The position numbers and the translations under genes were made by a program. The notes beneath the pieces were generated by a model, which had not been told where the DNA came from, did no database searches, and worked only from the letters and a program-made list of their open reading frames with translations. Of a DNA stretch of 64,000 bases, positions 5,156-52,355 are shown in pieces (position 1 is the first letter of the stretch; each line of letters opens with the position of its first letter). Source of the stretch: a bacterium (GTDB taxonomy: Bacteria > Patescibacteriota > Minisyncoccia > JACQLN01); the NCBI GenBank assembly GCA_030697795.1, contig JAUYOV010000007.1:73810-137809 (forward strand), in the 5' to 3' direction.

Positions 5156-5548
5156 ATGGAAAAAGATTTTGACAAATGGAACATTAAGAAAAAATCAGTC
5201 CACTATCACGGAGCTTCCTTATACTGTCATCCGAGAGAGGTCTGGTGGTGTTCCCTTGGTGTTAATGTTGGTTTTGAGCAGGATGGCACGGGTGAAAATT
5301 TCGATCGGCCAGTTGTAGTTATTCGCGGATTTAACGAATATATATTTTTTGGTGTAGCTCTTATTGGTAAAAATAAAAAAGGGAAATATTATTTTCCTGT
5401 TGGAAAAATTGAAGAAAGAGAAGCATCAGCAGTGCTTTCTCAAGTTAGAATCATCGATACTAAAAGGCTAATAAGGAAAATAACTACACTTGATGAGGAA
5501 CTATTTATAAAGTTAAATAACTCTCTCAAAGAGATACTTTTCGGCTAA
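5156..5548 (+). CDS. MazF/PemK/EndoA-family endoribonuclease toxin (no adjacent antitoxin seen)
   Basis: FEQDGTGENFDRPVVVIRGFN...SQVRIIDTKRLIRKITTLDEELFIKLNNSLKEIL parallels B. subtilis EndoA (SEQGGVRPVLVI...EQIRTIDKQRLTDKITHLDDEMM). Confidence 0.6.
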   Translation: MEKDFDKWNIKKKSVHYHGASLYCHPREVWWCSLGVNVGFEQDGTGENFDRPVVVIRGFNEYIFFGVALIGKNKKGKYYFPVGKIEEREASAVLSQVRIIDTKRLIRKITTLDEELFIKLNNSLKEILFG

Positions 5549-5765
5549 AAATAGTTTACCTCCGCTTGCGCGGGGGCGAGGCCGAAGCCCTTTATAAACT
5601 GATTCTAACAAGCTATGTAAAACCAGTCAAGGCTATTGCTGGCAAACCAAAATATCATATAATAAATTAAACAGTTCTTTGTTTTTCTGTTCCGAAGGAA
5701 TAACCTTTAAAACCAGAAGGTCATTCCTTCGGGAAATACTGCTCTTTAAAAATTAGGAGGCATAA

Positions 5766-6251: not shown

Positions 6252-7103
6252 ATGGCCACAAAAACGGCGTCATTCGCAGAAACTATAGAAATTTTATGGG
6301 ATATACTTGGCCTTAAAAAAGATGAGGCTTTAGCTAAGATAAAAAGCATAGGCCTTTCATATACAAAAACTCTTCTTTTGATTTTAGCTCTATGGGCTGG
6401 ATCTACTTTTTTCCTGATTTATTTGAAAGCTCTAACCGGAATAAAGTTTTTTGCTTTTTTGGCAGCCCTAGTTTCTTTTGTGTTCGCAGTAGCTATGAGA
6501 ATTTTATGGCTACCTATATCCACATGCCTTAGCATGATGGCACAAGAAACACTAAACCCCGCCAAAGCCAGCGAAGACTATATGAAAAGATCTGCAATGT
6601 TTGTTCTGGCGGGTCTTTCTGCATCTCTTTATGCTATGAATAACCCAATAGAAAACAACACAGATCTTCTTATGGGTTTAGCCGTAGCATTCATTGCGCT
6701 TTTGTTGCTAATTTATATTGCCGGTACTGTTGTTCCAATAAATGTATACGCGATTGCGCTTGGTATATATATAATTTATACCACTCTTCTTTTTAGGACT
6801 GATAAGCCGATTGACTATCTCCTAAGCGGATGCAATCAGCAAGTAACTTACTCCATCTACCAAGGCAAAACATACGGATCAAGCGAAGAGATAACGGTTT
6901 ATAATAAACCAGGAGAATTTTCTAGTGTAATTACTTTATCTGGAGTCTATAAACCAAGGTTCGTGGGTTCGGCAGAACTTCTGCCAGCTGGTTCAAATAC
7001 GGCTGTAAAAATAAAATCTGGCGAAAGATTCAATCTTGATTTCAATACATTCCAAGTCCGTAGCCAACTTGACTGGATAACATTTGTTCCTGCAAACAAA
7101 TAA
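6252..7103 (+). CDS. Hypothetical integral membrane protein
   Basis: 283 aa, multiple hydrophobic helices. 3 nt after upstream stop. Confidence 0.5.
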   Translation: MATKTASFAETIEILWDILGLKKDEALAKIKSIGLSYTKTLLLILALWAGSTFFLIYLKALTGIKFFAFLAALVSFVFAVAMRILWLPISTCLSMMAQETLNPAKASEDYMKRSAMFVLAGLSASLYAMNNPIENNTDLLMGLAVAFIALLLLIYIAGTVVPINVYAIALGIYIIYTTLLFRTDKPIDYLLSGCNQQVTYSIYQGKTYGSSEEITVYNKPGEFSSVITLSGVYKPRFVGSAELLPAGSNTAVKIKSGERFNLDFNTFQVRSQLDWITFVPANK

Positions 7104-7152
7104 CCTGTGCCTCCGAAATTTATCCCGCATATAAATTTATGTGCGAAAACCA

Positions 7153-9127: not shown

Positions 9128-9260
9128 TAAAATATATTTTTAAATTTCCAATTTCTAATATCTAATTACTAATCAAATCCCAATGACTAATGAACAAATA
9201 ACTAAAAAACTTTCTGACATTAGGCGTTTAAGCATTAGACATTGATTAGAAATTGGTAAT
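9128..9260. repeat. Inverted-repeat intergenic element, TCTAAT-unit family (copy 1)
   Basis: Arms aatttccaatttctaatatctaattactaatcaa ... ttgattagaaattggtaatt are reverse complements of each other. Same architecture at 10631, 34508, 36560, 47428, 52253. Confidence 0.7.
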
Positions 9261-9336
9261 TGCTCGCCCTGCGAAGCTTTACTGTGTCCTTCCGAAGCCT
9301 CGTGCGAAGGAGGAGCGGAGTAGGGGAAATTAGGAA

Positions 9337-10630: not shown

Positions 10631-10760
10631 TTGGAAATTACTAATTACCAATTTCTAATTACTAATAAAACTTTAAATGACTAATGACTAAATACTTTTG
10701 GACATTGGGATTTTGGTATTAGACATTGATTAGAAATTAGGTATTAGATATTAGAAATTC
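10631..10760. repeat. Inverted-repeat intergenic element, TCTAAT-unit family (copy 2)
   Basis: ttggaaattactaattaccaatttctaattactaat ... attagacattgattagaaattaggtattagatattagaaatt. Confidence 0.7.
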
Positions 10761-11296: not shown

Positions 11297-11366
11297 CTAG
11301 CTTTTAGCTTTTAGCTTTTAGCTTTCTAGGGAATTTCCTAAAAAGCTGAGAAGCTAGAAAGCTATT

Positions 11367-14247: not shown

Positions 14248-14352
14248 CAATCTACGAATGTACACGAATTATACTAATGGCTTCACAAATTCGTTTTCTA
14301 TTCGCATTATTCGTTAAACTTATTCGTAGCATTCGCATAAATTCGTATATTG
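14248..14352. repeat. Inverted-repeat intergenic element, ATTCG/CGAAT-unit family
   Basis: ctacgaatgtacacgaatt...aaattcgttttctattcgcattattcgtt...cgtagcattcgcataaattcgtatattggc. Confidence 0.6.
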
Positions 14353-14359
14353 GCATAAA

Positions 14360-18305: not shown

Positions 18306-20141
18306 ATGAAAGATGTGTTAAAAAATATATTTTTTGCTTTGGTAATTTTTATGGTTTTGGTCTCCCTTTTCTCGGGAGCTAATACCTTTTTTGTTAAGGA
18401 AAACGTTATTTCCTTGTCCGATTTAGCTCTAAAAGCTAAAGCCGGAGAAATTAAAACTGCTCTAATTTCTGGCGATAAAATAGAACTGGCCTTAACCGAT
18501 GAATCTAAGGCGGTGGCTTACAAAGAAGCTTCCGGTTCTCTTTTAGAAAGCTTAAAGAATTTAGGCGTAAGCGACAACGATATAAAGAAAATAAATATTC
18601 AGGTTAAAACCGAAGGCGGTTTAGCCTATTTTTTAATAAATATTCTGCCTATAGTTCTACCTTTTCTTTTGATCCTGCTTTTCTTTTACTTTATGTTTCG
18701 CCAAGCCAAAGGCGGGCAGATGCAAGCTTTTAATTTTGGCGCTTCCAAAGCTAAATTGTTTGATGCCAATAAAGAAAAAATAAATTTTAAAAATGTGGCG
18801 GGCGCCCATGAAGCCAAAGAAGAACTAAAAGAAGTTGTGGAATTTTTAAAAAGTCCGGCCAAGTTTTTGGGTATGGGCGCTAAAATTCCTCGCGGCGTAA
18901 TTTTAATAGGCTCGCCCGGCACAGGCAAAACCCTGCTCGCCCGGGCCGTAGCCGGCGAAGCCAGTGTGCCGTTTTTTCATATTTCTGGCTCGGAATTTGT
19001 GGAAATGTTTGTGGGCGTAGGCGCCTCTAGAGTTAGAGATTTATTTAATGTAGCCAAAAAACACGCACCCGCCATTGTTTTTATAGACGAAATTGACGCC
19101 GTCGGTAGGCACCGCGGTTCGGGTATGGGCGGTGGCCACGACGAACGCGAACAAACCTTAAACCAAATACTGGTGGAAATGGACGGTTTTGAGCGCGACA
19201 CCAATATTATTGTTATAGCGGCCACCAACAGACCAGACATTTTAGACCCGGCTTTATTGCGCCCGGGACGTTTTGATAGGCGCGTAATAATAGACGAACC
19301 AGATATAAAAAATCGAGAAGAGATTTTAAAAATACACTCCGAAGGCAAACCCTTATCCAGCACTGTTAATTTGCGAATAATTGCCGAGCGCACCCCCGGT
19401 TTTAGCGGAGCTGATTTAGCCAATTTAATGAACGAAGGCGCGATTTCGGCCGCTCGTAAAAATCAAAAAGAAATTACCCAAACCGAGCTGACCGAATCCA
19501 TAGAAAAAGTTATGATGGGGCCGGAAAGGCGCAGTAAAGTTTATTCGGCTAAAGAAAAAGAAATCGTGGCTTTCCACGAAGCTGGCCACGCTTTGGTGGC
19601 CGCTTCCCTTTCTAACGCTGATGCTGTTCATAAAATTTCTATAATTTCGCGTGGCCGAGCTGGGGGTTACACCTTAAAATTGCCAGTGGAAGAAATAAAT
19701 TTTTATTCCAAAAATAAATTTGTAGATGAACTAGCTACTTTGCTGGGCGGTTACGCCGCCGAAAAAACTGTTTTTGGCGATGTGACCACCGGCCCGCATT
19801 CCGATTTAAAAACCGCTTCCGATTTAGCCCGCCGGATCGTGACCGAATACGGTATGTCGGAAAAAATGGGGCCGATGACCTTTGGCGATAGGGAAAGGTT
19901 GGTATTTTTGGGCAAAGAACTCTCGGAAAACAGAAACTATTCCGAATCTGTGGCCACTAAAATAGACGATGAGGTTTCCAGTTTTATAGATAAAGCCTAT
20001 AAAACAGCTATGAAAATTGTTAAAGAGAAAAGAAATGCTCTAAACAAAATCGCGTCTGTGCTTATAGAAAAAGAAACCATAGAGCAAACTGAATTTAATG
20101 AGCTGATGAAAAGCATGCGCATCTCGGGATCAACGGCTTAA
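18306..20141 (+). CDS. ftsH: ATP-dependent zinc metalloprotease FtsH
   Basis: 611 aa. N-terminal TM, Walker [18 protein letters not shown] zinc motif. Confidence 0.95.
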
Positions 20142-20163
20142 AAAATTTCTGAAATGATTATAA

Positions 20164-20193
20164 AAACACCTCCTTGAATAAGGAGGTGTTTTT
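20164..20193 (+). terminator. Rho-independent terminator after ftsH
   Basis: aaacacctccttgaataaggaggtgttttt. Confidence 0.65.
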
Positions 20194-20252
20194 AGTTAAA
20201 GTAAGTTCATATGTAAGGGCATTGCCCTTCGTAGCTCCAAAGGAGCGAAGTA

Positions 20253-20329
20253 GGGCGTGTAGCTCAATTGGTTAGAGCACAGAGCTTATACCTCTGCGGT
20301 TCTAGGTTCGAGTCCTAGCACGCCCACCA
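20253..20329 (+). tRNA. tRNA-Ile with anticodon TAT (UAU), CCA encoded
   Basis: GGGCGTGTAGCTCAATTGGTTAGAGCACAGAGCTTATACCTCTGCGGTTCTAGGTTCGAGTCCTAGCACGCCCACCA. Ile-like body (compare E. coli Ile GGGCCTGTAGCTCAG...). Anticodon loop CTTATAC. Confidence 0.75.
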
Positions 20330-20406
20330 CGTAGGAAAAGTCAAAGAGTTTTGGGGGCAAAAACAAATTGGCGGTTTCGCATTTTGGGGGAAGAAAATTT
20401 TTAATC

Positions 20407-20637
20407 ATGATGAATAAATTAGAAAAAACAATTTTTTGGGGCGGTTTGATAGTTATAATCATAGATAATATCTATTGGCAGTGGTGGATTAAACTAACAG
20501 TAGACCCGTCTGTTGGCGGAGATGTCTTCAAAGGGTGGAGTATGGCTTGGGATATAATTTTTTTGGCTGTATGGGTTTATGTTCTTATCCGAATTTATAA
20601 AAGAGCCAGCAGAAAAGAAAAAGAAACAGGCGAATAG
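20407..20637 (+). CDS. Hypothetical small membrane protein
   Basis: Two hydrophobic helices. Start taken at first ATG (MMNKLEKT); the track ORF starts upstream at a non-ATG codon. Confidence 0.35.
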   Translation: MMNKLEKTIFWGGLIVIIIDNIYWQWWIKLTVDPSVGGDVFKGWSMAWDIIFLAVWVYVLIRIYKRASRKEKETGE

Positions 20638-24364: not shown

Positions 24365-26464
24365 ATGAATAACAAAAAAAGATTTGAAACCGAAATCGGT
24401 TCAAAGAAATTAGTGGTAGAAACAGGACACTGGGCTATACAAGCCAGTGGCGCTGTAACGGTAAGCTATGGAGAAACAGTAGTACTAGCTACTGTAGTTA
24501 TGTCTAAAAACGAAAGAACTGGCATAGACTATTTCCCTTTAACCGTAGATTTTGATGAAAAATTTTATGCCGCAGGTAAAATCAAAGCTTCCCGCTGGGT
24601 TAAAAGAGAGGGTAGACCTACGGACGAGGCTATTTTAACAGCCAGATTAGCCGATAGAACCCTGCGACCACTTTTTAACCACAGATTAAGAAACGAAGTT
24701 CAGCTTATCTTAACTGTACTGTCTTTTGACGGAGAAAACGATCCAGATGTACCAGCCATAATTGCAGGCTCCACCGCTATATTAATTTCCGGTATTCCTT
24801 GGAACGGGCCGGTTGGGGCTATAAGAGTAAGTCGAGATGAAAATAAAAAAATAGTAATAAACCCTACTTATGCCGAGCGCGCAAAAAGCGATTTAGATTT
24901 AGTAGTGGCCGGCCCAGAAAAATTAGTAAATATGATAGAGTGCCGGTCCCGCGAAGTAACCGAGGAAGATTTGCTGGTGGCTTTTGAAAGCGCCCAAAAA
25001 GAAATTCAAAAGATAATAGATTTTCAAAAAAATATTGCCGAATCTCTTGGTCATAAATCGTTATTAACCGCTGTGCCTTCGGCCGATGAAATCTTAAGAA
25101 AAGAAATAAAAAATTTTGTGGGCCAGCGCTTAGCAGAAACAATTTCTAAGGGCGATATGAACGCAACTGAAGAAATTAAAAAAGAATACTTCCAAAACCT
25201 GTCCGAAGAAAAGAAAAATCCCAAAAATATAGCCGAGGCCAACATTCTTTTTGAAGAAGAAATGAATGAAATAATCCACAGAAATGTTTTAGAAAAAAAT
25301 CAGCGTGTGGACGGCAGAAAAATAGAAGAAATTCGCCCTTTGAGCATTGAAGTTGGTGTATTACCGCGCACCCATGGTTCAGCTATTTTCCAAAGAGGCC
25401 AAACCCAAGCTTTGTGTGTAGCTACACTGGGCGCGCCAGGTATGGAGCAAGCCATTGAAACCATGGAATTTGAAGGCACTAAGCGCTATATCCACCATTA
25501 CAACTTTCCTCCGTTTTCATCTGGAGAAACAGGTAAAACTGGCAACCCCGGCCGAAGAGAAATCGGTCACGGCGCTTTAGCCGAAAGCGCGCTAGAACCG
25601 GTAATTCCTGCTAAAGTGGATTTTCCTTATACCGTTAGAATCGTAACAGAAATACTTTCTTCCAATGGTTCAACGTCTATGGCCGCAACTTGCGGTTCGA
25701 CTTTGGCTTTAATGGACGCTGGGGTGAAAATTAAAAAACCGGTGGCGGGCATAGCTATGGGCTTATTTATTGAAGACGAAACCAATCCAGAAAAAAAATT
25801 CGTGGTGGTCACAGATCTGCAAGGCGCGGAAGATCACTACGGCGATATGGATTTTAAAATAGCTGGCACCACAGAAGGTGTTAACGTTTTGCAGTTGGAC
25901 GTAAAAATATCTGGTCTAACTTCTAAAATACTGGCTCAAGCCTTAACTCAAGCCAAAAAAGCTAGATTAGAAATTCTGGAAGCCATGCTTAAAGTTATAC
26001 CTAAACCCAGAGAGAAAATGTCACCTTATGCACCGAAAATATTAACTTTAAAAATAAATCCTGCTAAAATTAGAGATGTTATTGGCGTCGGCGGAAAAAC
26101 TATACACCAGATAACAGACGAAACAGGTGTTACAATAGATATAGATGACGATGGCACTATATTTATAACTTCCAGCGATGAAGCCTCGGCCGAAAAAGCC
26201 AAGGAATGGATAAACAACCTGACGCGCGAGATTATTCAAGGCGAAATATTCCAAGGTAAAATAGTAAAAATATTAGATTTTGGAGCCTTTGCCGAAATAC
26301 TGCCGGGCCAGCAGGGTCTGATTCACATTTCCGAATTAGCGCCCTTTCGCGTAAACAGAGTGGAGGATATTGTTAATATAGGCGACATTGTGCCTGTTAT
26401 AGTAAAAAACATAGACACCGAAGGCAGAATTAATCTTTCGCTTAAAGACGCGCAAAAAAAATAA
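24365..26464 (+). CDS. pnp: Polynucleotide phosphorylase
   Basis: About 700 aa. Two RNase PH domains, KH and C-terminal S1 domain (GKIVKILDFGAFAEILPGQQGLIHISEL). Start chosen at ATG MNNKKRFETEIG; the track ORF begins at upstream TTG inside the palindrome. Confidence 0.92.
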   Translation: MNNKKRFETEIGSKKLVVETGHWAIQASGAVTVSYGETVVLATVVMSKNERTGIDYFPLTVDFDEKFYAAGKIKASRWVKREGRPTDEAILTARLADRTLRPLFNHRLRNEVQLILTVLSFDGENDPDVPAIIAGSTAILISGIPWNGPVGAIRVSRDENKKIVINPTYAERAKSDLDLVVAGPEKLVNMIECRSREVTEEDLLVAFESAQKEIQKIIDFQKNIAESLGHKSLLTAVPSADEILRKEIKNFVGQRLAETISKGDMNATEEIKKEYFQNLSEEKKNPKNIAEANILFEEEMNEIIHRNVLEKNQRVDGRKIEEIRPLSIEVGVLPRTHGSAIFQRGQTQALCVATLGAPGMEQAIETMEFEGTKRYIHHYNFPPFSSGETGKTGNPGRREIGHGALAESALEPVIPAKVDFPYTVRIVTEILSSNGSTSMAATCGSTLALMDAGVKIKKPVAGIAMGLFIEDETNPEKKFVVVTDLQGAEDHYGDMDFKIAGTTEGVNVLQLDVKISGLTSKILAQALTQAKKARLEILEAMLKVIPKPREKMSPYAPKILTLKINPAKIRDVIGVGGKTIHQITDETGVTIDIDDDGTIFITSSDEASAEKAKEWINNLTREIIQGEIFQGKIVKILDFGAFAEILPGQQGLIHISELAPFRVNRVEDIVNIGDIVPVIVKNIDTEGRINLSLKDAQKK

Positions 26465-26552
26465 GCACGAAGCACGAAGCACGAAATCCGAAACATTTTG
26501 AATTTAGAATTTGGGATTTGTTTCGAATTTCGAATTTCGATATTCGAATTTA
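26465..26552. repeat. Inverted-repeat intergenic element, CGAAAT/GCACGAA-unit family (copy 1)
   Basis: gcacgaagcacgaagcacgaaatccgaaaca ... tgtttcgaatttcgaatttcgatattcgaattt. Similar modules at 48786-48879 and 50866-50990. Confidence 0.65.
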
Positions 26553-28714: not shown

Positions 28715-28989
28715 CTGTTCTACATATATTTTTAGCTAATATTGTTCAAAAAAGCCAAGCATCCATCGGACGATTAACTTGCTGACAGCTCTCGACAGCA
28801 TTTTAAGATTCTGTTGTATTTACTTTTGAAGAACGAAGTGAGAAAATTAGATAGTTCTAACTAGTTCAATGTTTTTCTCGATGCCAGCTGGTCACAATGT
28901 TGGTGTCACTTGCTCTTTATTATTCCTTATTATATAGGATGAATTTGTTAGAACTCTAAGGTGTCCGTATTTAAATTGGGATACCCTAG

Positions 28990-29320
28990 AAATTTTTTCT
29001 TGCAGCAAAAAAACTGCTTGAATCTTGTTGGGTCGGTTCCGACCCAAATATAAATTAGTGGTCGCTAGAACCGGCTCCAACATATCCCCTCCGATAATAA
29101 TCGGGGAACAACGTTGTTCCGAGCCTAGAACGGAACAGGCAAATGTTTCTGTTAGTATAATCTTTCAGTTATGGATTGCTCTTTCTAAAAAAATAAAGGG
29201 AACAAGAGAAAAGTAATTTTCTCTTGGAGGCATAATGCCTCACACAGGGTGCTTAAACAATCTAGCAGTTTGGAAAAAAACAAACTGCGCAACCGGCTCG
29301 TTCCAGAGCCGGTTTTTTTA
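28990..29320 (+). ncRNA. Candidate structured non-coding RNA (unassigned family) ending in an intrinsic terminator
   Basis: About 770 bp with no credible ORF. Multiple perfect hairpins (gggtcggttccgaccc; ggaacaacgttgttcc; gaggcataatgcctc). Terminator ccggctcgttccagagccgg+T7 at 29293-29320. Confidence 0.25.
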
Positions 29321-29440
29321 TTGTTTATCTATGAGCGAAGCGAATAGTTATAAACAATAACCCGCTTAAGTTTTTGTTTTACAAAAATTTTGGCGGGTTA
29401 TAATATTAAAATAATATAATTTTTCTCTCCTGCAAGTATG

Positions 29441-29478
29441 AAAAATCCGCGCTCTTTGTAGAGCGCGGATTATTTTTT
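29441..29478. terminator. Bidirectional terminator
   Basis: aatccgcgctctttgtagagcgcggatt hairpin flanked by A5/T6 runs. Confidence 0.65.
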
Positions 29479-29488
29479 GGAACTAGTT

Positions 29489-34225: not shown

Positions 34226-34507
34226 AGAAAAACTTAAAAATAAAACTCGCTTACCCCTTAGAGCAGTCAGAAGATTTTCAAAAAAAGATGAAATTTTATA
34301 CCAAATACTAATCGGATATTGACCTTTACTTAACTAATCTGGTTTAGATAACTATTCTAACCCCAAAATAGGTGGGTATTGGCCTAACAAGCTTACTTAA
34401 GCACAAAACCCTGGTGGGCAGGGTTGTAGGTAAATACTAGCTTTTTTGAGAAGTAAGGTCAATTAGGATATTCCACAGACTACAGCCAAAACACAAGGCT
34501 AGGAAAT

Positions 34508-34618
34508 GTCTAATTTCTAATATCTAATCAATGACTAATTCCAAAATGGCTAATTTTAAAATTTGATCATTAGGCATTAGGATTTGATTAGAAATTAGAA
34601 ATTGGTAATTAGAAATTT
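34508..34618. repeat. Inverted-repeat intergenic element, TCTAAT-unit family (copy 3)
   Basis: gtctaatttctaatatctaatcaatgactaatt ... ggatttgattagaaattagaaattggtaattagaaatt. Confidence 0.7.
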
Positions 34619-36554: not shown

Positions 36555-36559
36555 AAACA

Positions 36560-36682
36560 AATTTCTAATTACTAATATCTAATTTCTAATCAAATCCTAA
36601 GGCCTAATTATCAAACCTTAAAATAGACATTTTAGAATTAGACATTGATTAGATATTAGAAATTGGATATTAGATATTTCAA
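36560..36682. repeat. Inverted-repeat intergenic element, TCTAAT-unit family (copy 4, clearest example)
   Basis: Left arm aaatttctaattactaatatctaatttctaatcaa. Reverse complement of right arm aaatatctaatatccaatttctaatatctaatcaa. About 50-nt unique centre. Confidence 0.75.
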
Positions 36683-36685
36683 AAT

Positions 36686-37564
36686 ATGTTAAAAAGAAAA
36701 AATAAATTGTTATTAGAATCAGCCGACATTCGCCCAATTAAACATATGGGGCAAAACTTCTTAGTTTCCGAAGAAATTATAGAGAAAATAATTTTAGAGG
36801 CAAAGATTAAAACGGGCGAAACTATTTTAGAAGTTGGACCAGGTACGGGCAATTTAACTATGGCGTTATTGGCAACAGGGGCAAAAGTGGTAGCAATAGA
36901 AAAGGATTCTAAATTAGTTCATCTGTTAATTTCTAATTTCCAATTTCTAATTTCTAAAAAAAAATTAAAGGTAATTGAACAAGATATTTTGAGTTTTGAT
37001 GAAATGGCGATCAAATCGCCATATAGAGTAATCGCCAACATTCCCTATTATTTAACGGGCAAGCTGATTCAAAAATTTCTGCTTTCGGCTAATAAACCAT
37101 CGGAATTAATACTTATGGTTCAAAAAGAAGTGGGCGAGAGGATAACGGCGCAACCACCCAAAGCTAATTTTCTTTCTTCGCTAGTGCAGTTTCTGGCCGA
37201 AACCAAAATTTTATTTAAAGTAGGTAAAGAAAACTTCTGGCCTCAACCTAAAGTAGATTCAGCCTTGATTAAACTAACCCCGTACCAATATACACCGAGC
37301 ATACGATCGTATGCTCGTGATACGGTTGGAATCAATATCAATAATAATGAGGAATTTATAGAGTTTTTGAAGATGGTTTTTAGGCAACCGCGGCAGACGC
37401 TTTTTAATAATCTAAGAAAATATCTAGTTAGCACGAGTCAGCGATCGCCAGCTCATGCTAAATTAGATTCAGTCTTTCAAGAGCTTGGATTTGATAAAAA
37501 AATACGAGCTCAAAACTTGGGCAAGGAAGACCTTGTCAATCTTTTTAGCTTATTAGGATATTAG
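36686..37564 (+). CDS. rsmA: 16S rRNA (adenine1518/1519-N6)-dimethyltransferase RsmA/KsgA
   Basis: 292 aa. ILEVGPGTGNLT (SAM motif I) and NIPYYLTGKL match KsgA. Contains an internal ttaatttctaatttccaatttctaatttctaaaaaaaaa stretch coding LISNFQFLISKKK. Confidence 0.8.
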   Translation: MLKRKNKLLLESADIRPIKHMGQNFLVSEEIIEKIILEAKIKTGETILEVGPGTGNLTMALLATGAKVVAIEKDSKLVHLLISNFQFLISKKKLKVIEQDILSFDEMAIKSPYRVIANIPYYLTGKLIQKFLLSANKPSELILMVQKEVGERITAQPPKANFLSSLVQFLAETKILFKVGKENFWPQPKVDSALIKLTPYQYTPSIRSYARDTVGININNNEEFIEFLKMVFRQPRQTLFNNLRKYLVSTSQRSPAHAKLDSVFQELGFDKKIRAQNLGKEDLVNLFSLLGY

Positions 37565-37722
37565 CTTCCTAGTTTTCTAAAATATTATCTTCCTAATTCC
37601 TAAAAACCTAGAAAGCTAACTCCTAGTTAGCATAGTTTATTAATGTTTTTGCTGTTTTTCTGTGGAAAACATTAATAAATTTGCAGACGTAAAAACTCGC
37701 TAATAGTGTTAAAATTTACCTA

Positions 37723-44087: not shown

Positions 44088-44122
44088 CACACTAATATAT
44101 AAATGACAAATGAATCCAAAAA

Positions 44123-44155
44123 CCCTAAATCATAAATCCGAAACTCTAAACAAAC
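44123..44155. repeat. Left arm of inverted-repeat element carrying four-helix-bundle gene (CTAAAT-unit family)
   Basis: ccctaaatcataaatccgaaactctaaacaaac. Reverse complement resembles right arm at 44531-44575. Confidence 0.6.
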
Positions 44156-44159
44156 ACTA

Positions 44160-44519
44160 ATGAACCAAATTACAAACAAGAATAATTACGACCTAGAAGA
44201 AAGGACGTTAAAATTTGCCCAAAGAGTAAATGAATATGTCCGTAAGTTATCAAGGACAATAACTAACATAGAGAATGGCAAACAATTAGTGAGATCAGGT
44301 GGATCAGTAGGAGCAAACTATATAGAAGCTAACGAATCCCTTGGTAGAAAAGACTTTATGATGAGAATTAAGATATCCAAAAAAGAAACAAAAGAAAGTA
44401 GATACTGGCTAATACTAACAGAGCCGAATAAAGACAACCTACTTGAAAAAGAAAGTTTGATTAAGGAATCTACGGAGCTTATGAAAATATTTGGTTCAAT
44501 CCTAGAAAAATCAAAATAG
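44160..44519 (+). CDS. Four-helix-bundle protein (family often found in 23S rRNA intervening sequences)
   Basis: 119 aa. ...TLKFAQRVNEYVRKLSRTITNIENGKQLVRSGGSVGANYIEANESLGRKDFMMRIKISKKETKESRYWLILTE matches the four-helix-bundle (TIGR02436-type) signature (QLxRS..SIGANI.EA...S.KDF...I..KE..ET.YWL). Confidence 0.7.
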   Translation: MNQITNKNNYDLEERTLKFAQRVNEYVRKLSRTITNIENGKQLVRSGGSVGANYIEANESLGRKDFMMRIKISKKETKESRYWLILTEPNKDNLLEKESLIKESTELMKIFGSILEKSK

Positions 44520-44530
44520 GTTATTGGTAA

Positions 44531-44575
44531 ATTGTGATTTATAATTTGTTTAGGATTTAGATATTAGAATTTAGT
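44531..44575. repeat. Right arm of inverted-repeat element carrying four-helix-bundle gene
   Basis: aattgtgatttataatttgtttaggatttagatattagaatttag. Confidence 0.6.
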
Positions 44576-44591
44576 ATTTCACACACATATT

Positions 44592-44870: not shown

Positions 44871-44892
44871 TAAACAATCAAATTATAAATAC

Positions 44893-44985
44893 TAAATCCG
44901 AAACTCTAAACAAACTCCAAATGCCAATTTACCAAATTAGAATTTGTGATTTAAATATTGTTTAGGATTTAGATATTAGAATTTA
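44893..44985. repeat. 'Empty' copy of the four-helix-bundle-carrying inverted-repeat element (left + right arms with about 25-nt gene remnant)
   Basis: ctaaatccgaaactctaaacaaac | tccaaATGccaatttaccaaattag | aatttgtgatttaaatattgtttaggatttagatattagaatttag. Arms near-identical to those at 44123 and 44531. Confidence 0.6.
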
Positions 44986-44991
44986 GAGATT

Positions 44992-45660
44992 ATGGCAAAT
45001 ACTTCTTCAACCCACCAACTTATAGAAACCAAAGAAATTAAAGATGGTCTTGTTGTTTTAAAAAATGGGGGATTAAGAGCTATTTTGATGGTATCTTCCA
45101 TAAACTTTGCTTTAAAATCCAGCGAAGAACAAGAAGCCATAATCGACCGCTTTCAGGGTTTTATAAATTCCATAGATTTTCCTGTTCAAATTTTGGTTCA
45201 ATCCAGAAAACTGGATATTTCTGAATATTTAAAATTTCTAAACGAAAGAATCGGCATACAAACCAACGAGCTCTTAAAAATACAGACTTCTGAATATATT
45301 AATTTTATACAAGAATTAATTAAGCTAACCAATGTTATGTCTAAGTTCTTTTATGTGATAATTCCCCTAAGTACGGTGGCCGTTCTAGCAACAGGGTTTT
45401 TTTCTAAGTTTTTTTCTAAAAACAAAAAAGGCGTTCAAGATCAAAAAGACTTAAACTTTGAAACACAAAAAAATACAATTCAACAAAGAGTAGACCAAGT
45501 TACCAGTTTGTTAAGTTCTATGGGTTTAAAAGCGATACCCTTAGAAAAAGAAGCTTTAATCGAGCTTTTGTATACATCGTATAACCCCGGCAGCGAAGTT
45601 AAGCAAAAGAATATGGAGGCCTTAATTGCCACAGGGGATGAAGCTAAAAAATCAGGATAA
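44992..45660 (+). CDS. virB4: VirB4/TrbE/PrgJ-like ATPase, N-terminal fragment (gene interrupted at A6 run)
   Basis: 222 aa. ...IKDGLVVLKNGGLRAILMVSSINFALKSSEEQEAIIDRFQGFINSIDFPVQILVQSRKLDISEYL is the typical VirB4 N-terminal domain. Confidence 0.75.
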   Translation: MANTSSTHQLIETKEIKDGLVVLKNGGLRAILMVSSINFALKSSEEQEAIIDRFQGFINSIDFPVQILVQSRKLDISEYLKFLNERIGIQTNELLKIQTSEYINFIQELIKLTNVMSKFFYVIIPLSTVAVLATGFFSKFFSKNKKGVQDQKDLNFETQKNTIQQRVDQVTSLLSSMGLKAIPLEKEALIELLYTSYNPGSEVKQKNMEALIATGDEAKKSG

Positions 45661-45665
45661 AATAT

Positions 45666-47426
45666 ATGGAACCGAAAAACCAACAAATCGCCTCGGCCGG
45701 CACCCTAGAAGATCTTTTAGCCCCGCCGGCTTTACAGGTCAATCCTTCTAATTTGCAGATAGGCGAGAAATTTTCTAGAACAATATTTGTGGCTAATTAC
45801 CCTAGATTTTTGAGCGTGGGCTGGTTTTCGCCTATTATTAACTTAGATAAAATTTTTGATGTTTCTTTATTTATTCAACCCTCCGAAACTGGTCCTGTTT
45901 TAAAAAAACTAACCAAAAAAACAGCGCAGATCGGCGCGCAGATGTCGGAAAAAGAAGAGGGGGGTTTTATACGCGATCCCATGCTAGAAACAGCTTACCA
46001 AGATTTAGAATCTTTGCGCGATAAACTGCAACAAGGCACTGAAAGGTTTTTTCGGGCCGGCTTATATCTTACTTTTTATGCTAGTTCCGTAAAAGAACTG
46101 GATGATGTTGAAAGCAGAGTAAATACGATATTAGAATCAAAATTAATATATTCTAAAGTTGCGGTGTTCCAGCAACAAGAAGGCTATACCTCTACCCTGC
46201 CTTTAAATTTAGATAAGCTTCAGGTTTATAATAGCTTAAACACTGGCCCGCTTTCTTCTTTCTTTCCTTTTGTTTCAGCCGATCTTACCTCCAACAAAGG
46301 TGTGCTTTATGGCATAAACAGGCACAATAACAGCCTTATACTTTTTGATAGATTCTCTTTAGAAAACGCCAACACGGTTGTTTTTGCTAAATCCGGTTCG
46401 GGCAAAAGCTATACTGTTAAATTAGAGGTTTTACGTTCCTTAATGCTAGGCACCGATGTAATAATTATAGACCCAGAAAGCGAGTATAAATACTTAAACG
46501 ATGTAGTGGGCGGAACTTTTGTAAATATTTCTTTAACTTCTGCTAACCATATAAATCCGTTTGATTTAACTATACCCAGCGAAGATGAAAGCCCAGCCGA
46601 AGTTTTAAAAGCTAATATTATAGAGCTGACCGGCTTATTAAAAGTAATGTTGGGCCAGTTAACGCCCGAAGAAGATTCAATTATAGACAAAGCCTTAACC
46701 GAAACCTATGCTTCGCGCGATATCAGCATAAATTCGGATTGGCGGGGCAAACAGGTACCTTTAATGGGCGACCTGCATACCGTATTAAAAAACATGCAGG
46801 GCGCGGAAAAATTAGCCATTCGCATAGAAAAATATGTGACAGGCACATTCTCTGGCTTTTTAAATCAACCCACCAATGTGGCCTTAAACAATAACTTAGT
46901 TGTTTTTTCTATAAGAGATCTGGAACCAGAACTTCGCCCAGTGGCTATGTATATTTTATTGCACTATGTTTGGAACTTAATAAGAGCGCAAAGAAAGAAA
47001 AGAATAATGGTGGTGGACGAGGCCTGGTGGATGATGCAACATCAAGAAGCCGGCGCGTTTTTATTTAGCATTGCCAAAAGATGCCGTAAATATTATTTGG
47101 GGCTTACCACTATAACCCAAGACGTGGAAGATTTTATGAAATCGCAATACGGCAAGCCCATTGTAACCAATTCCGCCCTGCAAATATTGCTAAAGCAATC
47201 GCCGGCGGCCATAGACACGGTGGCTCAAACATTTAATTTAACCGATGAAGAAAAGTTTTTACTTTTAGAGTCCAGCGTGGGCGAAGGCATATTTTTAGCC
47301 GGTTTAAAGCGCGCGGCTATAAAAGTGGTGGCTTCTTATACCGAAGATCAAGTTATTACATCCGACCCAGCGCAATTATTGGAAATAGAAGCGGCTAAGA
47401 AAGAACTAGCCGAAGCACAGAAATGA
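45666..47426 (+). CDS. virB4: VirB4/TrbE/PrgJ-like ATPase, C-terminal ATPase fragment
   Basis: 586 aa. Walker A FAKSGSGKS, Walker B/DEAW (IMVVDEAWWMM), and the conserved motifs of T4SS VirB4 ATPases. Confidence 0.85.
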   Translation: MEPKNQQIASAGTLEDLLAPPALQVNPSNLQIGEKFSRTIFVANYPRFLSVGWFSPIINLDKIFDVSLFIQPSETGPVLKKLTKKTAQIGAQMSEKEEGGFIRDPMLETAYQDLESLRDKLQQGTERFFRAGLYLTFYASSVKELDDVESRVNTILESKLIYSKVAVFQQQEGYTSTLPLNLDKLQVYNSLNTGPLSSFFPFVSADLTSNKGVLYGINRHNNSLILFDRFSLENANTVVFAKSGSGKSYTVKLEVLRSLMLGTDVIIIDPESEYKYLNDVVGGTFVNISLTSANHINPFDLTIPSEDESPAEVLKANIIELTGLLKVMLGQLTPEEDSIIDKALTETYASRDISINSDWRGKQVPLMGDLHTVLKNMQGAEKLAIRIEKYVTGTFSGFLNQPTNVALNNNLVVFSIRDLEPELRPVAMYILLHYVWNLIRAQRKKRIMVVDEAWWMMQHQEAGAFLFSIAKRCRKYYLGLTTITQDVEDFMKSQYGKPIVTNSALQILLKQSPAAIDTVAQTFNLTDEEKFLLLESSVGEGIFLAGLKRAAIKVVASYTEDQVITSDPAQLLEIEAAKKELAEAQK

Positions 47427-47427
47427 C

Positions 47428-47538
47428 AAATTCCTAATTTCTAATCAATTTCTAATGCTTAAATGCCTAATTTCAGAACTTAGCCATTAGACATTTTGGT
47501 TTGATTAGATATTAGAAATTAGATATTAGACATTTTAA
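47428..47538. repeat. Inverted-repeat intergenic element, TCTAAT-unit family (copy 5)
   Basis: caaattcctaatttctaatcaatttctaatgcttaaatgcctaatt ... gtttgattagatattagaaattagatattagacatttt. Confidence 0.7.
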
Positions 47539-47944: not shown

Positions 47945-48781
47945 ATGAAATTAAAACATACAAAACTATTTACGATTCTAGTTATAACTATTTCTATAAT
48001 AACAGTGCCTATTTTTTCTTTGGCTCAAGAAAATCTAGATCAAGTTAGCGATACAGATATTGAGCAGGTAGAAAATTTAATAAACTCTACAATAGAAACA
48101 GCTCTTAAGGAAGAGCGAGCAGAAGGCAACGACTTTAATTTAGATATAGTTTGGAAAGCCAATACTTTATTGCCTTACGATTATAAAGGTAAAGCCTGGC
48201 CCAGCTCTTTATCGTCTATCGTTTTTTACGCTATGGCCGACGTGCCCAACCCCGATAGTTTAGTTTATACCTGGTTAATAGACGATATTTCTTCTAACAA
48301 AGAGGGTCCCGAACTTCAAGGCCGGGGTAAAAGCACCTTTAACTGGTTTACATTCCAAACTCCAGAGTTTACACACGAGTTAAGGGTTTTTGCCCAAGAC
48401 AACGATGGGCGCAAGGGTAGTGCTTCTTTAAATATTAAAACAGTAAGCCCAGAAATTAATTTTAGTATAATCAACAACAATATTTTTAATAATTCAATTT
48501 TTGGTTCATTAAAACTCCAACCGGGTAGCAGTACTAATATATTGGTTCGCCCCTTTTACTTTAATTTATTTAATCTGGATGGTTTAGATTTTATATGGAA
48601 GTTAAACGGCAAAGCCGATAAAAATTCTGGCCCCAGAAAAGATATTCTGCCTTTGAACATTTCCTCTTCAGCCCTACCGGGCGCTTATTCTAATTTACGC
48701 CTAGAATTAAAAAATAATAAGCAAAAAAATAATATTTTTGACAGTGCTAATGCCACAATCAATATAAATATAATTAAATGA
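47945..48781 (+). CDS. Hypothetical secreted protein
   Basis: 278 aa. Signal peptide LFTILVITISIITVPIFSLAQ. Asn-rich. Confidence 0.45.
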   Translation: MKLKHTKLFTILVITISIITVPIFSLAQENLDQVSDTDIEQVENLINSTIETALKEERAEGNDFNLDIVWKANTLLPYDYKGKAWPSSLSSIVFYAMADVPNPDSLVYTWLIDDISSNKEGPELQGRGKSTFNWFTFQTPEFTHELRVFAQDNDGRKGSASLNIKTVSPEINFSIINNNIFNNSIFGSLKLQPGSSTNILVRPFYFNLFNLDGLDFIWKLNGKADKNSGPRKDILPLNISSSALPGAYSNLRLELKNNKQKNNIFDSANATININIIK

Positions 48782-48785
48782 TAAA

Positions 48786-48879
48786 TAAATCCGAAGCACG
48801 AAATCCGAAGCACGAAACAAATCTCAAATTCAAAATTTTAAATTACAAATTTTGGGTATTAAGATTTGGATATTGGAAT
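48786..48879. repeat. Inverted-repeat intergenic element, CGAAAT/GCACGAA-unit family (copy 2)
   Basis: aaatccgaagcacgaaatccgaagcacgaaacaaatctcaaattcaaaat ... attttgggtattaagatttggatattggaatttgtttg. Confidence 0.6.
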
Positions 48880-49722
48880 TTGTTTGTAATTTGTTGCTTG
48901 GGATTTGTAATTTTGTCGTCTTCGTCTTCGGCGCTGGAGGTTTCTTTTCCCACAGTTCAAGGCGCGGAAGTGGGCGACTCTATGGGGCCGGCTGAATGGA
49001 TAAAATATATTTTTCTTTTGGCCCAAGCTCTGGTGGGCCTCGCCATAATATACGCCTTTGTTAGAGCGGGCTTATTATGGATGACGGGCGGCGACAATCA
49101 AACCAGAATAGGCGAGGCTAAAAAGTGGATCACCGGCGCTATAACAGGACTCGTTATACTTTTAGGCTCTTATTTATTTTTAAAAACTATAAACCCGCAA
49201 CTGGTTAACATTAAAAACCCGGGCGTAAACTTTGGCACCGACGCACCCAGTGGTATATTAGATTTTTGGAATAAATTGTTTTTTAAAAAACATGGCGTGG
49301 GAGAATCTTGTGGGTCTAGTTTTGATTGCCAAGGCCTTCTTGAGTGCGTGAGAGACCCTAAAAACCCCAGAGCATCTAGTGGTGTATGCACCAACACAAG
49401 CGAGTTATTTTTAGGATATGAAGCTGGTCATGCATGCGGAAAAGATTCTGAATGTGGTGATGATTTAACTTGTGACGACGAAAAAAAAGTTTGTGTCGCT
49501 GGAACAAAAACAGCTGGGGGATCAATATGCGGACCAGGAAATCAGTGTTCTAGTGAACAAAGATGTTTTAAAACATCTTCTGGCGAATTAGCTGAAAACA
49601 TACCTGGCGAGTGTAGTTCTTACAAAGCGCTAGGCGAAGATTGTAGAACAGATATCGCCAATGAATGCCGTGGTATTGGAACAGAATGCGACCTAACAAC
49701 TAAAAAGTGTATAAAAAAATAA
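48880..49722 (+). CDS. VirB2/TrbC-like pilin-family N-terminal domain fused to a C-terminal domain of four Cys-rich repeats
   Basis: Probable TTG start at 48880 (signal-like LFVICCLGFVILSSSSSA). Helix-MTGGDNQTRIGEAKKWI-helix as in the 7220/7746/8101 paralogs. C-terminus has four repeats of C-x-C-type modules (CGSSFDCQGLLEC; CGKDSECGDDLTC; CGPGNQCSSEQRC; CRTDIANECRGIGTEC). The track ORF starts at 48778 inside the repeat. Confidence 0.5.
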   Translation: MFVICCLGFVILSSSSSALEVSFPTVQGAEVGDSMGPAEWIKYIFLLAQALVGLAIIYAFVRAGLLWMTGGDNQTRIGEAKKWITGAITGLVILLGSYLFLKTINPQLVNIKNPGVNFGTDAPSGILDFWNKLFFKKHGVGESCGSSFDCQGLLECVRDPKNPRASSGVCTNTSELFLGYEAGHACGKDSECGDDLTCDDEKKVCVAGTKTAGGSICGPGNQCSSEQRCFKTSSGELAENIPGECSSYKALGEDCRTDIANECRGIGTECDLTTKKCIKK

Positions 49723-50859: not shown

Positions 50860-50865
50860 AGAAAA

Positions 50866-50990
50866 TTCAAAGCACGAAATACGAAATTCGAAACAAATTC
50901 CAATGTTCAAAATCCCAAATCCAAAACCGTTTAGAATTTATAATTTGGTATTTAGATATTGTTTCGGATTTCGATATTGGGATTTCGTAT
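50866..50990. repeat. Inverted-repeat intergenic element, CGAAAT-unit family (copy 3)
   Basis: aaagcacgaaatacgaaattcgaaacaaattccaat ... attgtttcggatttcgatattgggatttcgtattt. Confidence 0.65.
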
Positions 50991-51446: not shown

Positions 51447-51541
51447 GAGTTTTCGCCAATATGACTAATCTAAACTAATATACCAATAGATTTAATTAGC
51501 TATATTCGCGTCAATTCGTATATTAGCTTTTATTGGCTATA
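51447..51541. repeat. Inverted-repeat intergenic element, ATTCG-unit family; contains 27-mer identical to 56824-56850
   Basis: tatattcgcgtcaattcgtatattagc at 51501-51527 is identical to 56824-56850. Confidence 0.7.
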
Positions 51542-52249: not shown

Positions 52250-52252
52250 TTT

Positions 52253-52352
52253 AATATCTAATGTCTAATTACTAATATCTAATCAATTTCTAATGTCTAA
52301 ATAGTCTTATCATTAGTCATTGGGATTTGATTAGAAATTAGATATTAGAAAT
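52253..52352. repeat. Inverted-repeat intergenic element, TCTAAT-unit family (copy 6), inside the rnpA-yidD-yidC operon
   Basis: atatctaatgtctaattactaatatctaatcaatttctaatgtctaaat ... gggatttgattagaaattagatattagaaattt. Confidence 0.7.
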
Positions 52353-52355
52353 TTG

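Follow-up and report, generated by a model that had tools for sequence, protein, structure and literature searches.

Tandemly repeated heptamers have been a puzzle of bacterial genomics since 1990. Heptameric simple sequence repeats (SSRs) are over-represented in bacterial intergenic DNA, according to the work of Mrazek (2007) as it is cited in PMC4679880 and PMC4692102. TAACTGA repeats occur in Beggiatoaceae, Cyanobacteria and Bacteroidetes (PMC4679880), and the GGGAATC/GGGGAYT repeats of Xanthomonas and Nostoc consist mostly of four units, vary among close relatives and in some cases form inverted pairs (PMC4692102). Heptamers also appear in Coxiella burnetii's 23S rRNA intervening sequence (IVS), a 428-nt selfish insert whose 28-bp terminal stem is cut by RNase III, and whose loop carries an S23p open reading frame (ORF) after two to three tandem GACAGAT heptamers, the number of which varies among strains (PMC4990558). 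S23p-carrying IVSs are likewise known from Leptospira, Xanthomonas and Brucella (PMC4990558), and PF05635 ORFs have been found in rRNA insertions of the candidate phyla radiation (CPR) and in cas loci (PMC3936711 for the cas association). Here, these systems are compared with three hairpins, sites 1 to 3, in a 64-kb stretch of contig JAUYOV010000007.1 from a member of the Patescibacteriota; this window of the source contig is the scope of the genome-level results throughout. With somewhat more confidence than doubt, sites 1-3 are interpreted as non-autonomous, gene-less copies of a selfish hairpin element whose full form has a four-helix-bundle gene (S23p/PF05635/TIGR02436) in its loop, and which belongs to a class recognised so far mainly from rRNA IVSs. 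This reading is carried by homology to gene-bearing copies, dispersal to non-orthologous junctions, turnover at orthologous sites, co-variation of gene and arm type, and compensatory changes in the arms.

Each of the three sites is an imperfect hairpin of ~90-130 nt whose arms are made of 7-nt units of the form nnnCGAA/CGAAATn. The 5' arms are A/C-rich, with the units AAGCACG, AAATCCG, AAATACG and AAATTCG, while the 3' arms are complementary and T/G-rich, with the units TTTCGAA, TTTCGGA and ATATTCG; a hinge, CGAAACA(AAT) ... TGTTTCG, divides an outer tier of units from an inner tier. The arm plan of the element is accordingly one of two-tier C(G/T)AAATn arrays joined by a hinge (5' CKAAACAAAT, 3' ATTTGTTTMG), and elements with such arms are referred to as type A. 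On the evidence of the sequence, the CGAAA/GCACGAA units are a variant of the CTAAA unit that is free of stop codons.

Site 1 (26463-26552, + strand; 79.9 bits, E 3.2e-12 with the covariance model R1 described below) is a short, gene-less type-A element. Its 5' arm, (AAGCACG)x3 followed by AAATCCGAAACA, spans 26463-26495, and its 3' arm, TGTTTCGAATTTCGAATTTCGATATTCGAATTT, spans 26519-26552; its first bases are the last two of the pnp stop codon, and the next gene begins with the ATG at 26622, ~70 nt beyond the element. Site 2 (48786-48915, +; R1 109.6 bits), also gene-less and type A, has a 5' arm of (AAATCCG AAGCACG)x2 followed by AAACAAATC and a 3' arm that has degenerated to TTTGT/TTGG units, with G.U pairs resulting on the + strand. 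Site 3 (50863-50993, +; R1 130.6 bits) is the fullest of the gene-less type-A elements, lies between the convergent genes 49723-50859 (+) and khpB/jag at 50991-51446 (-), and retains the hinge together with a remnant of a gene start, CGAAACAAATTCCAATGttcaaaatcccaaatccaaaac.

Gapless complementarity between the arms extends over 28 nt at 75% in site 1, over 31 nt at 71% and 27 nt at 78% in site 2, and over 28 nt at 71% and 20 nt at 80% in site 3. On either strand, the folding z-scores of the sites range from -1.9 to -3.8 relative to dinucleotide shuffles, modest values that are, by themselves, suggestive of structure without deciding the matter. Decisive for the reality of the sites is instead a 7-nt periodicity far beyond chance. 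Under a criterion of at least 16 self-matches in 21 positions, with low-complexity stretches removed, the window contains 17 runs at lag 7 (710 nt) and 13 at its harmonic, lag 14, as against 0-1 at each of lags 4-6, 8-11 and 13; the arrays are often ~4.4 units long. The sites are also mutually homologous, with blastn identities of 73-85%. An earlier note on this DNA had described three inverted repeats with arms of GCACGAA/CGAAAT units, and the arm pairing of 71-80%, the lag-7 runs, the alignment of the copies and the folding of the arms on both strands, however modest, bear this description out. The sequences it gave were correct, and its coordinates require amendment at site 2, which ends at ~48915 rather than at 48879. 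Its count of three copies, on the other hand, was too low, as the window holds a fourth gene-less copy at 44880-44992 as well as a gene-bearing copy at 44100-44579.

In the gene-bearing copy, a 5' arm at 44100-44165 (+), ATGACAAATGAATCC...CCCTAAATCATAAATCCGAAACTCTAAACAAACACTA, is followed by an ATG, the four-helix-bundle gene at 44160-44519 (+; TIGR02436/PF05635, S23p) occupies the hairpin loop, and the 3' arm, TTGTGATTTATAATTTGTTTAGGATTTAGATATTAGAATTTAGTATTT, lies at 44529-44579 (+). The gene product matches TIGR02436 with 62.8 bits against a cut-off of 24 (E 3e-17), as well as Pfam PF05635, '23S_rRNA_IVP', and PDB entry 2RLD (E 3e-12); it is 100% identical to P0001 and has homologues in the thousands. 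The fourth gene-less type-A element (44880-44992, +; R1 99.7 bits), which is of the CTAAA variant, closely reproduces the arms of the gene-bearing element that lies 350 nt upstream of it: its right arm is 91% identical to 44529-44574 over 46 nt, and its left arm 82% identical to 44126-44183 over 60 nt.

This arrangement is not peculiar to the window. A small sample of gene-bearing loci was assembled from CPR and allied metagenome-assembled genomes (MAGs; 11 four-helix-bundle and two GxxExxY genes) and from plasmids (13 four-helix-bundle genes), and at the CPR and allied loci inverted periodic arms bracket every homologue of 44160-44519 and both GxxExxY (TIGR04256) genes. All six type-A four-helix-bundle genes (from the window, L124, L134, L154, L155 and L156) have C(G/T)AAAT arms, then the hinge CTAAACAAAT, then the ATG, the full layout being [C(G/T)AAATn]n - hinge CTAAACAAAT(TC)C(A)ATG - gene - ATTTGTTTAG - [rATTTAG, ATATTAG]n. 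The type-A proteins outside the window are 71-75% identical to the window protein, and their contexts include Sungbacteria (L124), a position amid type IV pilus genes (L134) and an Mnh/Mbh operon in a MAG labelled WOR-3 (L154).

The gene-less copies retain traces of this layout. Site 3 aligns with the gene-bearing elements of L124 and L156, and its start region, CGAAACAAATTCCAATGttcaaaatcccaaatccaaaac, has its counterpart in CTAAACAAATTCCAATGactcaaatatcaaattccaaac of the gene-bearing L134. The motif AAACAAAyyCCAATG is kept in three gene-less elements, site 3, L112 and L124b, and in site 3 an N-terminal remnant of the four-helix-bundle gene persists, comprising its start codon and its heptamer-like first codons. 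Since gene start, first codons and hinge are all retained in site 3, sites 1-3 are taken to be gene-less derivatives of the gene-bearing form. We conclude that site 3 would be a near complete derivative, site 2 one with a decayed 3' arm, and site 1 one without the inner tier.

The covariance model R1 was trained solely on CGAAA/CTAAA copies, namely sites 1-3, 44880-44992, L112, L086, L124 and L001. Because they were training sequences, its matches to the four type-A copies of the window arise by construction, including the E-values of the three sites (1.5e-21, 1.1e-17 and 3.2e-12, the last for site 1). The six 'TCTAAT' hairpins of the window, in contrast, were absent from the training set, and all six are recovered at full length, with E-values from 4e-10 to 2e-5. 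These gene-less elements of a CTAAT subfamily lie at 9143-9262 (hinge CTAATCAAAT ... ATTGATTAG; E 2e-5), 10636-10760 (E 4e-10), 34505-34617 (E 1e-7), 36558-36682 (E 4e-8), 47421-47535 (E 6e-7) and 52252-52358 (E 7e-7). The third of them is situated in a divergent spacer and abuts the start of the 34602-36554 gene, and that at 47421-47535 fills exactly the interval between the stop codon of a VirB4-like ATPase gene and the next start. R1 thus finds four type-A and six CTAAT gene-less elements in the window, or ~1 per 6 kb; beyond it, copies are present in the close relatives L001 and L124 and in none of the other 79 pnp loci. In the family alignment, invariant AA/TT(T) columns recur each 7 nt, and 7 of 22 consensus pairs are altered on both sides (GC/CG/UA), these compensatory changes recurring every 7 nt at the variable position of the unit.

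Because R1 recovers both kinds at full length, the 'TCTAAT' and CGAAA families are regarded as subfamilies of one architecture. The parallel organisation that had been noticed between them is thereby upheld, and versions with a gene in the loop exist for both. The cross-match and the four-helix-bundle versions in each make one shared propagating system the best reading, and to this extent the idea of a single mechanism stands; the part of it that would have each hairpin made independently at its own site does not, in view of the common hinge CGAAACAAAT, the GATATT unit, the remnant ATG and the homologues at non-orthologous junctions. Across the window the elements occupy spacers of all three gene arrangements (tandem, convergent and divergent) as well as positions inside operons, often extending exactly from stop to start. 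An enrichment next to genes of the type IV secretion system (T4SS), which the earlier note had raised, is not significant, with ~5 of 10 copies in 14 of 64 kb; a T4SS-specific association was dropped for that reason, and in relatives the copies adjoin pnp, type IV pilus, Mnh, dnaE and other genes.

Generation in place would involve slippage of heptamers together with template switching in quasi-palindromes, without any copying between sites. Slippage has been proposed as the cause of the excess of heptameric SSRs in many bacteria (Mrazek 2007, as cited in PMC4679880 and PMC4692102), and local events of this kind are visible here: the perfect (AAGCACG)x3 and (AAATCCGAAGCACG)x2 repeats point to recent local duplication, and one arm of L156 has been independently homogenised. 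What this explanation does not accommodate is the recurrence, across junctions and genomes, of idiosyncratic features, namely the hinge, the AAATTCCAATG remnant, the odd GATATT unit of the 3' arm and the non-repetitive inner loop AAATCCAAAAC(C/G)GTTTAGAATTT. The last two are common to site 3 and to its homologues at another junction in L112 (81.5% over 119 nt) and L086 (81% over 100 nt). The same arms, moreover, surround 71-85%-identical genes in distant CPR lineages, and copies cluster across junctions. Since idiosyncratic features are held in common and homologues occur at non-orthologous junctions (L086, L112, L124), the copies are best seen as lineages of one dispersed element class, and manufacture in place is considered distinctly improbable.

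Comparison of orthologous junctions points in the same direction. The pnp product, which has no exact match on record with either start codon, shares 78% identity with its counterpart in the CPR MAG L001 and ~55% with those of Moranbacteria, and in L001 an element at 5499-5629 follows pnp at the same boundary as site 1 (R1 E 2.7e-19), all of its units, in both arms, having CAAAT/ATTTG in place of CGAAA/TTTCG. When metagenomes were scanned with the VirB4-like ATPase (45666-47426), syntenic contigs of 82-93% identity were obtained, mostly from the 0.1 and 0.2 µm size fractions of Hainich groundwater. At the site 2 junction, the CGAAA element of the window corresponds to CTAAT in L082, to TTTTCAA/TTGAAAA in L092, and to an ATTCGTA-type piece in L089 and L091, while L081 is essentially empty. 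At the site 3 junction, the place of CGAAAT is taken by CTAAT with a nested G+C palindrome in L081 and L082, by CAAAT/CTAAT in L089, and by CGAATGA-type elements in L088 and L091, with none in L090. The CTAAT element between the ATPase gene and the next gene likewise has no counterpart in L089 and L091, where stop and start are adjacent or overlapping (TAATATG, TAATG), and the nearly identical genomes L081 and L082 carry wholly different spacer cassettes at two junctions. Judged from these alignments, the pattern is that of a dispersed, fast-turnover repeat family with concerted evolution, and not that of growth in place or of conserved regulatory sites.

The junctions at which L081 and L082 differ are 47945-48781|pilin and 54970-56085|56197-56745, full stop-to-start spacers having been swapped for unrelated hairpins; at the second, five genomes have five hairpins with identical outer boundaries. 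As a separate observation, G+C-rich palindromes are nested in heptamer arms or loops in L086 (2070-2095, CCTCACTTCGCGGGCGAAGCGGG), L081 (15200-15270) and L016 (~2790-2825), which suggests a second, smaller mobile hairpin that may target heptamer elements.

The gene-bearing form has undergone replacement as well. At the position orthologous to that of the window gene, L082 has a gene of a second type, B, that is 38% identical to the type-A gene, as against 92% identity for the ATPase. Type-B genes (L082, L087, L088, L089 and L016) are mutually close, and have CTAAT/CAAAT arms with the hinge AATCAAT. Type-A genes from Sungbacteria and other CPR, conversely, are 71-85% identical to that of the window (71% for the Sungbacteria copy), while pnp is ~50-55% identical between such lineages. 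The local presence of type B and the occurrence of type A in distant lineages therefore argue for replacement of whole elements and for horizontal spread. Gene type co-varies with arm type, making a cognate relation between protein and arms plausible, and it is likewise plausible that a protein recognises arrays of short repeats, as the earlier note had suggested.

The placement of the hairpins could also be explained as host punctuation, with terminators, 3'-end stabilisers or translational insulators selected spacer by spacer. Most hairpins lie directly after stop codons, a hairpin of one kind or another occupies the convergent site 3 junction in five of six genomes, the CTAAT/CTAAA arrays place two to eight stops in all six frames, and the elements fold better than shuffled controls. 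Yet the G+C-rich stem and U-tract that define an intrinsic terminator are present at no element, and terminator-like sites are not above shuffled controls. Many copies lie inside tight operons, and at the junction where stop and start are adjacent or overlapping in L089 and L091 a terminator would be harmful; another copy occupies a divergent spacer beside a start codon. Presence varies even between the near-identical L081 and L082, the CGAAA variant is without stop codons, and there is no preference for folding of the sense strand. Punctuation is therefore viewed as an unlikely explanation. In a scan of the window, promoter-like sites were not in excess and none coincided with the elements. 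Rfam models applied at gathering and E-value thresholds identified no element family, as only tRNAs pass the gathering score, and the sub-threshold matches are chance resemblances to miRNA-like hairpins.

The stop codons themselves follow from the length of the unit: because 7 mod 3 = 1, three CTAATnn/CTAAATn units give TAA in all three frames, and each of the six frames of the CTAAT/CTAAA hairpins is interrupted by 2-8 stops. The CGAAA variant lacks those stops, and sites 1-3 each have at least two open frames. This has a consequence at site 2, where over 48778-48981 exactly one of the six frames is open and joins the ATG at 48778, which overlaps the upstream TGA as ATGA, to the ORF of a T4SS pilin. 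Translated in this frame, the A-rich 5' arm yields a polar stretch rich in Lys and the T-rich 3' arm yields FGYWNLFVICCLGFVIL, after which comes SSSSSA|LEVSFP; hydropathy peaks at residues 30-46, and the pilin has a Pfam match. L081 and L082 have an ordinary signal peptide ahead of the same LEVSFP. Site 2 has thus probably been recruited, or exapted, as the coding region of the pilin signal peptide, the two arms supplying a Lys-rich n-region and a hydrophobic h-region.

A more familiar form of mobility would be that of classical miniature inverted-repeat transposable elements (MITEs) or of paired repetitive extragenic palindromic sequences (REPINs), moved in trans by a DDE transposase or by a REP-associated tyrosine transposase (RAYT; IS200/IS605-like). 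The elements are, like these, palindromic, intergenic, dispersed and ~100-130 nt long, and several copies have the conserved outer ends ATGACAAAT ... ATTTGTCAT. However, a target-site duplication is undefinable, and neither such a duplication nor ends in common with a transposase element, the hallmarks of a MITE, were found; the sequence features of REPs and REPINs (a 20-40 nt palindrome and a GTAG head) are absent at the elements within the window. The longer versions found carry a four-helix-bundle or GxxExxY gene and never a transposase, and no transposase was seen adjoining copies in ~1.3 Mb, although no systematic search was made. This explanation is given the least credence of those considered, and appears very improbable.

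The selfish-hairpin reading suggests a mechanism of a different kind. All seven type-A gene-less copies with co-directional neighbours match those neighbours in orientation, and the four-helix-bundle gene usually does likewise; because the elements are mostly co-oriented with flanking genes, co-transcription with host operons is probable. The transcripts of host operons would then carry the elements, and their arrays would grow, shrink and homogenise through replication slippage and gene conversion, within and between copies. By analogy with rRNA IVSs, the long RNA stem could be cut by RNase III, and a pentameric four-helix-bundle protein may, again by analogy, recognise its own heptamer arrays and aid their spread. 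It is a further speculation that each protein subunit binds one heptamer, which would fit the common 4.4-unit arrays; an equally speculative alternative is that similar arms in many spacers allow cassettes to move by homologous recombination.

Several points weigh against this reading. Arm complementarity is just 71-80%, and the folding z-scores are modest. Filled and empty junctions display no target-site duplication or excision footprint, a comparison that is ambiguous in AT-rich DNA, where TA-level repeats alone were seen, and no transposase lies beside any copy in the ~1.3 Mb of loci, for which no systematic search was made; movement is therefore deduced from distribution. On element coordinates the sense strand folds better in 5 cases and the antisense strand in 7, with 3 ties; in showing no strand preference, the folding lends no support to selection for structure in the sense RNA. 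Cutting by RNase III and binding by the protein are proposed by analogy alone. The order of derivation could be reversed, with the gene captured by existing hairpins, although the remnant ATG favours deletion, and four-helix-bundle genes may favour landing in pre-existing heptamer hairpins, which would partly explain the association. Lastly, the arms of L156 carry unlike units (CGAAAT vs TTTAG), so that pairing is not strictly maintained. A preference for antisense folding, first hinted at by whole spacers, had vanished once element coordinates were used. When IMG/VR viral sequences were scanned, the hinge motif CKAAACAAATTCYAATG turned up 38 times, in every case by chance, with no heptamer context, R1 match or four-helix-bundle gene, and hence no evidence of carriage by phages.

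The association of four-helix-bundle genes with heptamer arrays extends well beyond this genome. A tblastn search of plasmids found the gene chiefly in cyanobacteria, and also in Bacteroidota, Chloroflexota, Spirochaetota and Bacillota. Lag-7 arrays (at least 15/21) were present on both sides of 12 of the 13 plasmid four-helix-bundle genes and of none of 30 control genes of the Nostoc flagelliforme plasmid L153, and across the 13 plasmid loci lag 7 is the best lag at every flank but one. On the flanks of the CPR four-helix-bundle genes, a threshold of at least 16/21 proved too strict, as the units vary at 2-3 positions, and an inverted-repeat score across the gene and a comparison of lags were used in its stead; by the former, 7 of 10 four-helix-bundle genes rank in the top 2.5% relative to 1114 control genes. 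Within 40 kb of L153, there are 11 runs at lag 7 vs 0-2 at other lags, and of 31 genes the four-helix-bundle gene alone has arrays on both flanks, with 21/21 matches in each; gene-less hairpins of the same unit as this element lie close by. The element, at 19850-20420 with (AATTCAA)4/(TTTTGAA)4 arms, is bracketed by a 10-bp direct repeat, GGAGTTGGGT, possibly a duplication of the target or of a gene end.

The contexts of the plasmid genes include cas2|cas1 (twice), drmD|MmeI, RND adaptor|RND permease, helicase|methylase, hsdS|hsdR and KAS III|hydrolase, and the array orientation is mostly inverted, being direct in L144, L147 and L150. Heptamer-flanked four-helix-bundle genes lie between cas2 and cas1, or beside cas1, in the cyanobacterial plasmids L144, L196 and L150, and the reported CRISPR association of 23S_rRNA_IVP genes (PMC3936711) may reflect selfish insertion rather than function. 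The units are specific to each genome, with CCCCAAT and CGTAAAT in Planktothrix, CTCCGCT in Treponema, AACTGTn and TAACTGA-like units in Chondrinema and Nostoc, AATTCAA/TTTTGAA in Nostoc and Aulosira, and CTGGTCA in Euhalothece. The last of these we take to resemble STRR2, a member of the cyanobacterial short tandemly repeated repetitive (STRR) sequences. STRR2-like (CTGGTCA) and TAACTGA-like units flank four-helix-bundle genes in L151, L146 and L153. For GxxExxY genes, the plasmid search gave a single match, in Persicobacter, with repeats of ~8-9 nt in direct orientation; since this match differs, their link to heptamer arms rests on the two CPR examples.

At 80 pnp loci from many phyla, lag-7 arrays outnumber those at lag 6 and lag 8 and often form inverted pairs (Acidobacteria, Atribacterota, Synergistaceae). 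Heptamer inverted repeats with genome-specific units lie near pnp in L043 (Atribacterota; 6653-6719 and 7036-7107) and in L045, L073 and L080 (Acidobacteria); in L043, arrays A and B are followed ~320 nt on by A' and B', in a non-nested order.

The arrays might alternatively be sites for a nucleic-acid-binding protein of the host, such as a cold-shock, KhpA/B or nucleoid protein, that would serve regulation or structure, with the four-helix-bundle gene as a passenger. According to the review PMC4679880, each heptamer is reportedly bound by one CspB protein, arrays of ~4.4 units are common, and a KhpB/Jag gene adjoins site 3. But units that differ among subfamilies and genomes are a poor fit to one conserved host protein, gain and loss occur between near-identical genomes, and the adjacency to KhpB holds for one copy only, so that a host protein of this kind is very unlikely to account for the arrays.

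Other repeats of the window lie outside the CGAAA and CTAAT subfamilies. A hairpin family with CGAAT/ATTCG-type units and a period of ~7-10 nt occurs at 14266-14359, 51447-51541, 56086-56196 and 56763-56855, and elsewhere in L088 (13986-14455), L084 (1144-1530) and L091 (at least eight copies). Its gene-bearing versions have a GxxExxY gene (TIGR04256, PD-(D/E)XK) in the loop, and its gene-less copies retain AATAAGAATAAA, a remnant of the N-terminus of that gene. A fourth hairpin family, with TAGCTTT/AAAGCTA units, is present at 11297-11366 and 37558-37650 and in L083 (2258-2340), where the stop codon of the ATPase gene, TAG, is the first triplet of the first TAGCTTT unit. At 938-968, a perfect (TTTGATA)x4.4 array abuts a tRNA-Arg gene (980-1052, -) and has no obvious partner arm. 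Finally, 28715-29488 is a gene-free convergent spacer of 774 nt with predicted structures of -253 kcal/mol (+) and -227 kcal/mol (-) and two terminator-like hairpins near 29290-29325 and 29440-29480. It contains no tRNA, no tmRNA and no Rfam match above noise, and may, on these predictions, be an undescribed or divergent structured RNA.

Together, these observations raise a broader proposal, put forward tentatively, as possible rather than probable. The heptamer repeats of bacteria (STRR, TAACTGA, GGGAATC and the excess of 7-nt SSRs) would be largely the arms or footprints of one ancient, cross-phylum class of selfish hairpins, whose autonomous forms encode a pentameric S23p/Avd-like protein, and sometimes a GxxExxY nuclease. 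The pentamer would recognise its own array, each subunit reading a single unit, and rRNA IVSs would be copies that landed in rRNA. Reading by one subunit per unit fits, because the commonest arrays have ~4-5 units. If true, the proposal would join three puzzles: the function and mobility of rRNA IVSs and S23p; the four-helix-bundle genes, a huge unexplained family found between operon genes, including those of cas, restriction-modification and efflux operons; and the heptamer excess, the link perhaps helping to account for the abundance of 7-base repeats in the spaces between bacterial genes. It also makes a testable pairing of type-A protein with C(G/T)AAAT arrays and of type-B protein with CTAAT arrays. 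At ~1 element per 6 kb, the elements would be a sizeable load of selfish DNA for CPR genomes of ~1 Mb. They reshape operon spacers, at site 2 they appear to have supplied a signal peptide, and their heptamer arrays can mislead both CRISPR or repeat finders and the prediction of gene starts. In literature searches, with subscription literature outside their reach, no paper came to light that makes a general connection between four-helix-bundle genes and heptamer repeats, and within the searchable literature this general link appears not to have been described previously.

With regard to known systems, Avd of the diversity-generating retroelements is a pentameric, nucleic-acid-binding four-helix bundle of the PF05635 superfamily that acts on structured RNA; the reverse transcriptase, template repeat and variable repeat of those retroelements have no counterpart here. 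Rho-independent terminators resemble the elements in being hairpins downstream of genes, but the element stems are A+T-rich, imperfect and 30-50 nt long, have no U-tract, and occur inside operons and in divergent spacers. REPINs with their RAYTs, and MITEs (PMC3116915), share with the elements the form of ~100-nt intergenic hairpin repeats in multi-copy populations within a genome, for which a single-gene 'master' has been proposed; they differ in that here the GTAG motif and target-site duplication are absent, the associated gene encodes a four-helix bundle or a GxxExxY PD-(D/E)XK protein, and the arms are tandem heptamers.

The closest likeness is to the IVSs, which are selfish inserts of sporadic distribution with pairing ends, heptamers, and a PF05635 ORF in the loop without a good ribosome-binding site. 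The elements have terminal inverted repeats that form a stem, tandem heptamers of variable copy number beside the ORF and, as a family, an S23p ORF in the loop, which sites 1-3 lack. IVSs, however, are located in helix 45 or 25 of rRNA, whereas the copies described here lie in spacers between protein-coding genes, once within such a gene, in a window devoid of rRNA; as none is in rRNA, the elements are IVS-like rather than IVSs in the strict sense. Both arms, furthermore, are almost entirely two-tier heptamer arrays, most copies are without an ORF, and a role for RNase III would be by analogy. To the STRR-like repeats, the elements correspond in their exact 7-nt tandem units with lag-specific enrichment, mainly intergenic location, arrays of ~4 units with 2-3 variable positions, fast variation, and abutment on start or stop codons. 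Those repeats have been described as free-standing direct repeats of unexplained origin, for which G-quadruplex formation, translational control or slippage has been put forward, and none of the papers found in the literature searches ties them to a gene, whereas in the elements described here the heptamers form the arms of a defined element with what is plausibly its cognate gene.

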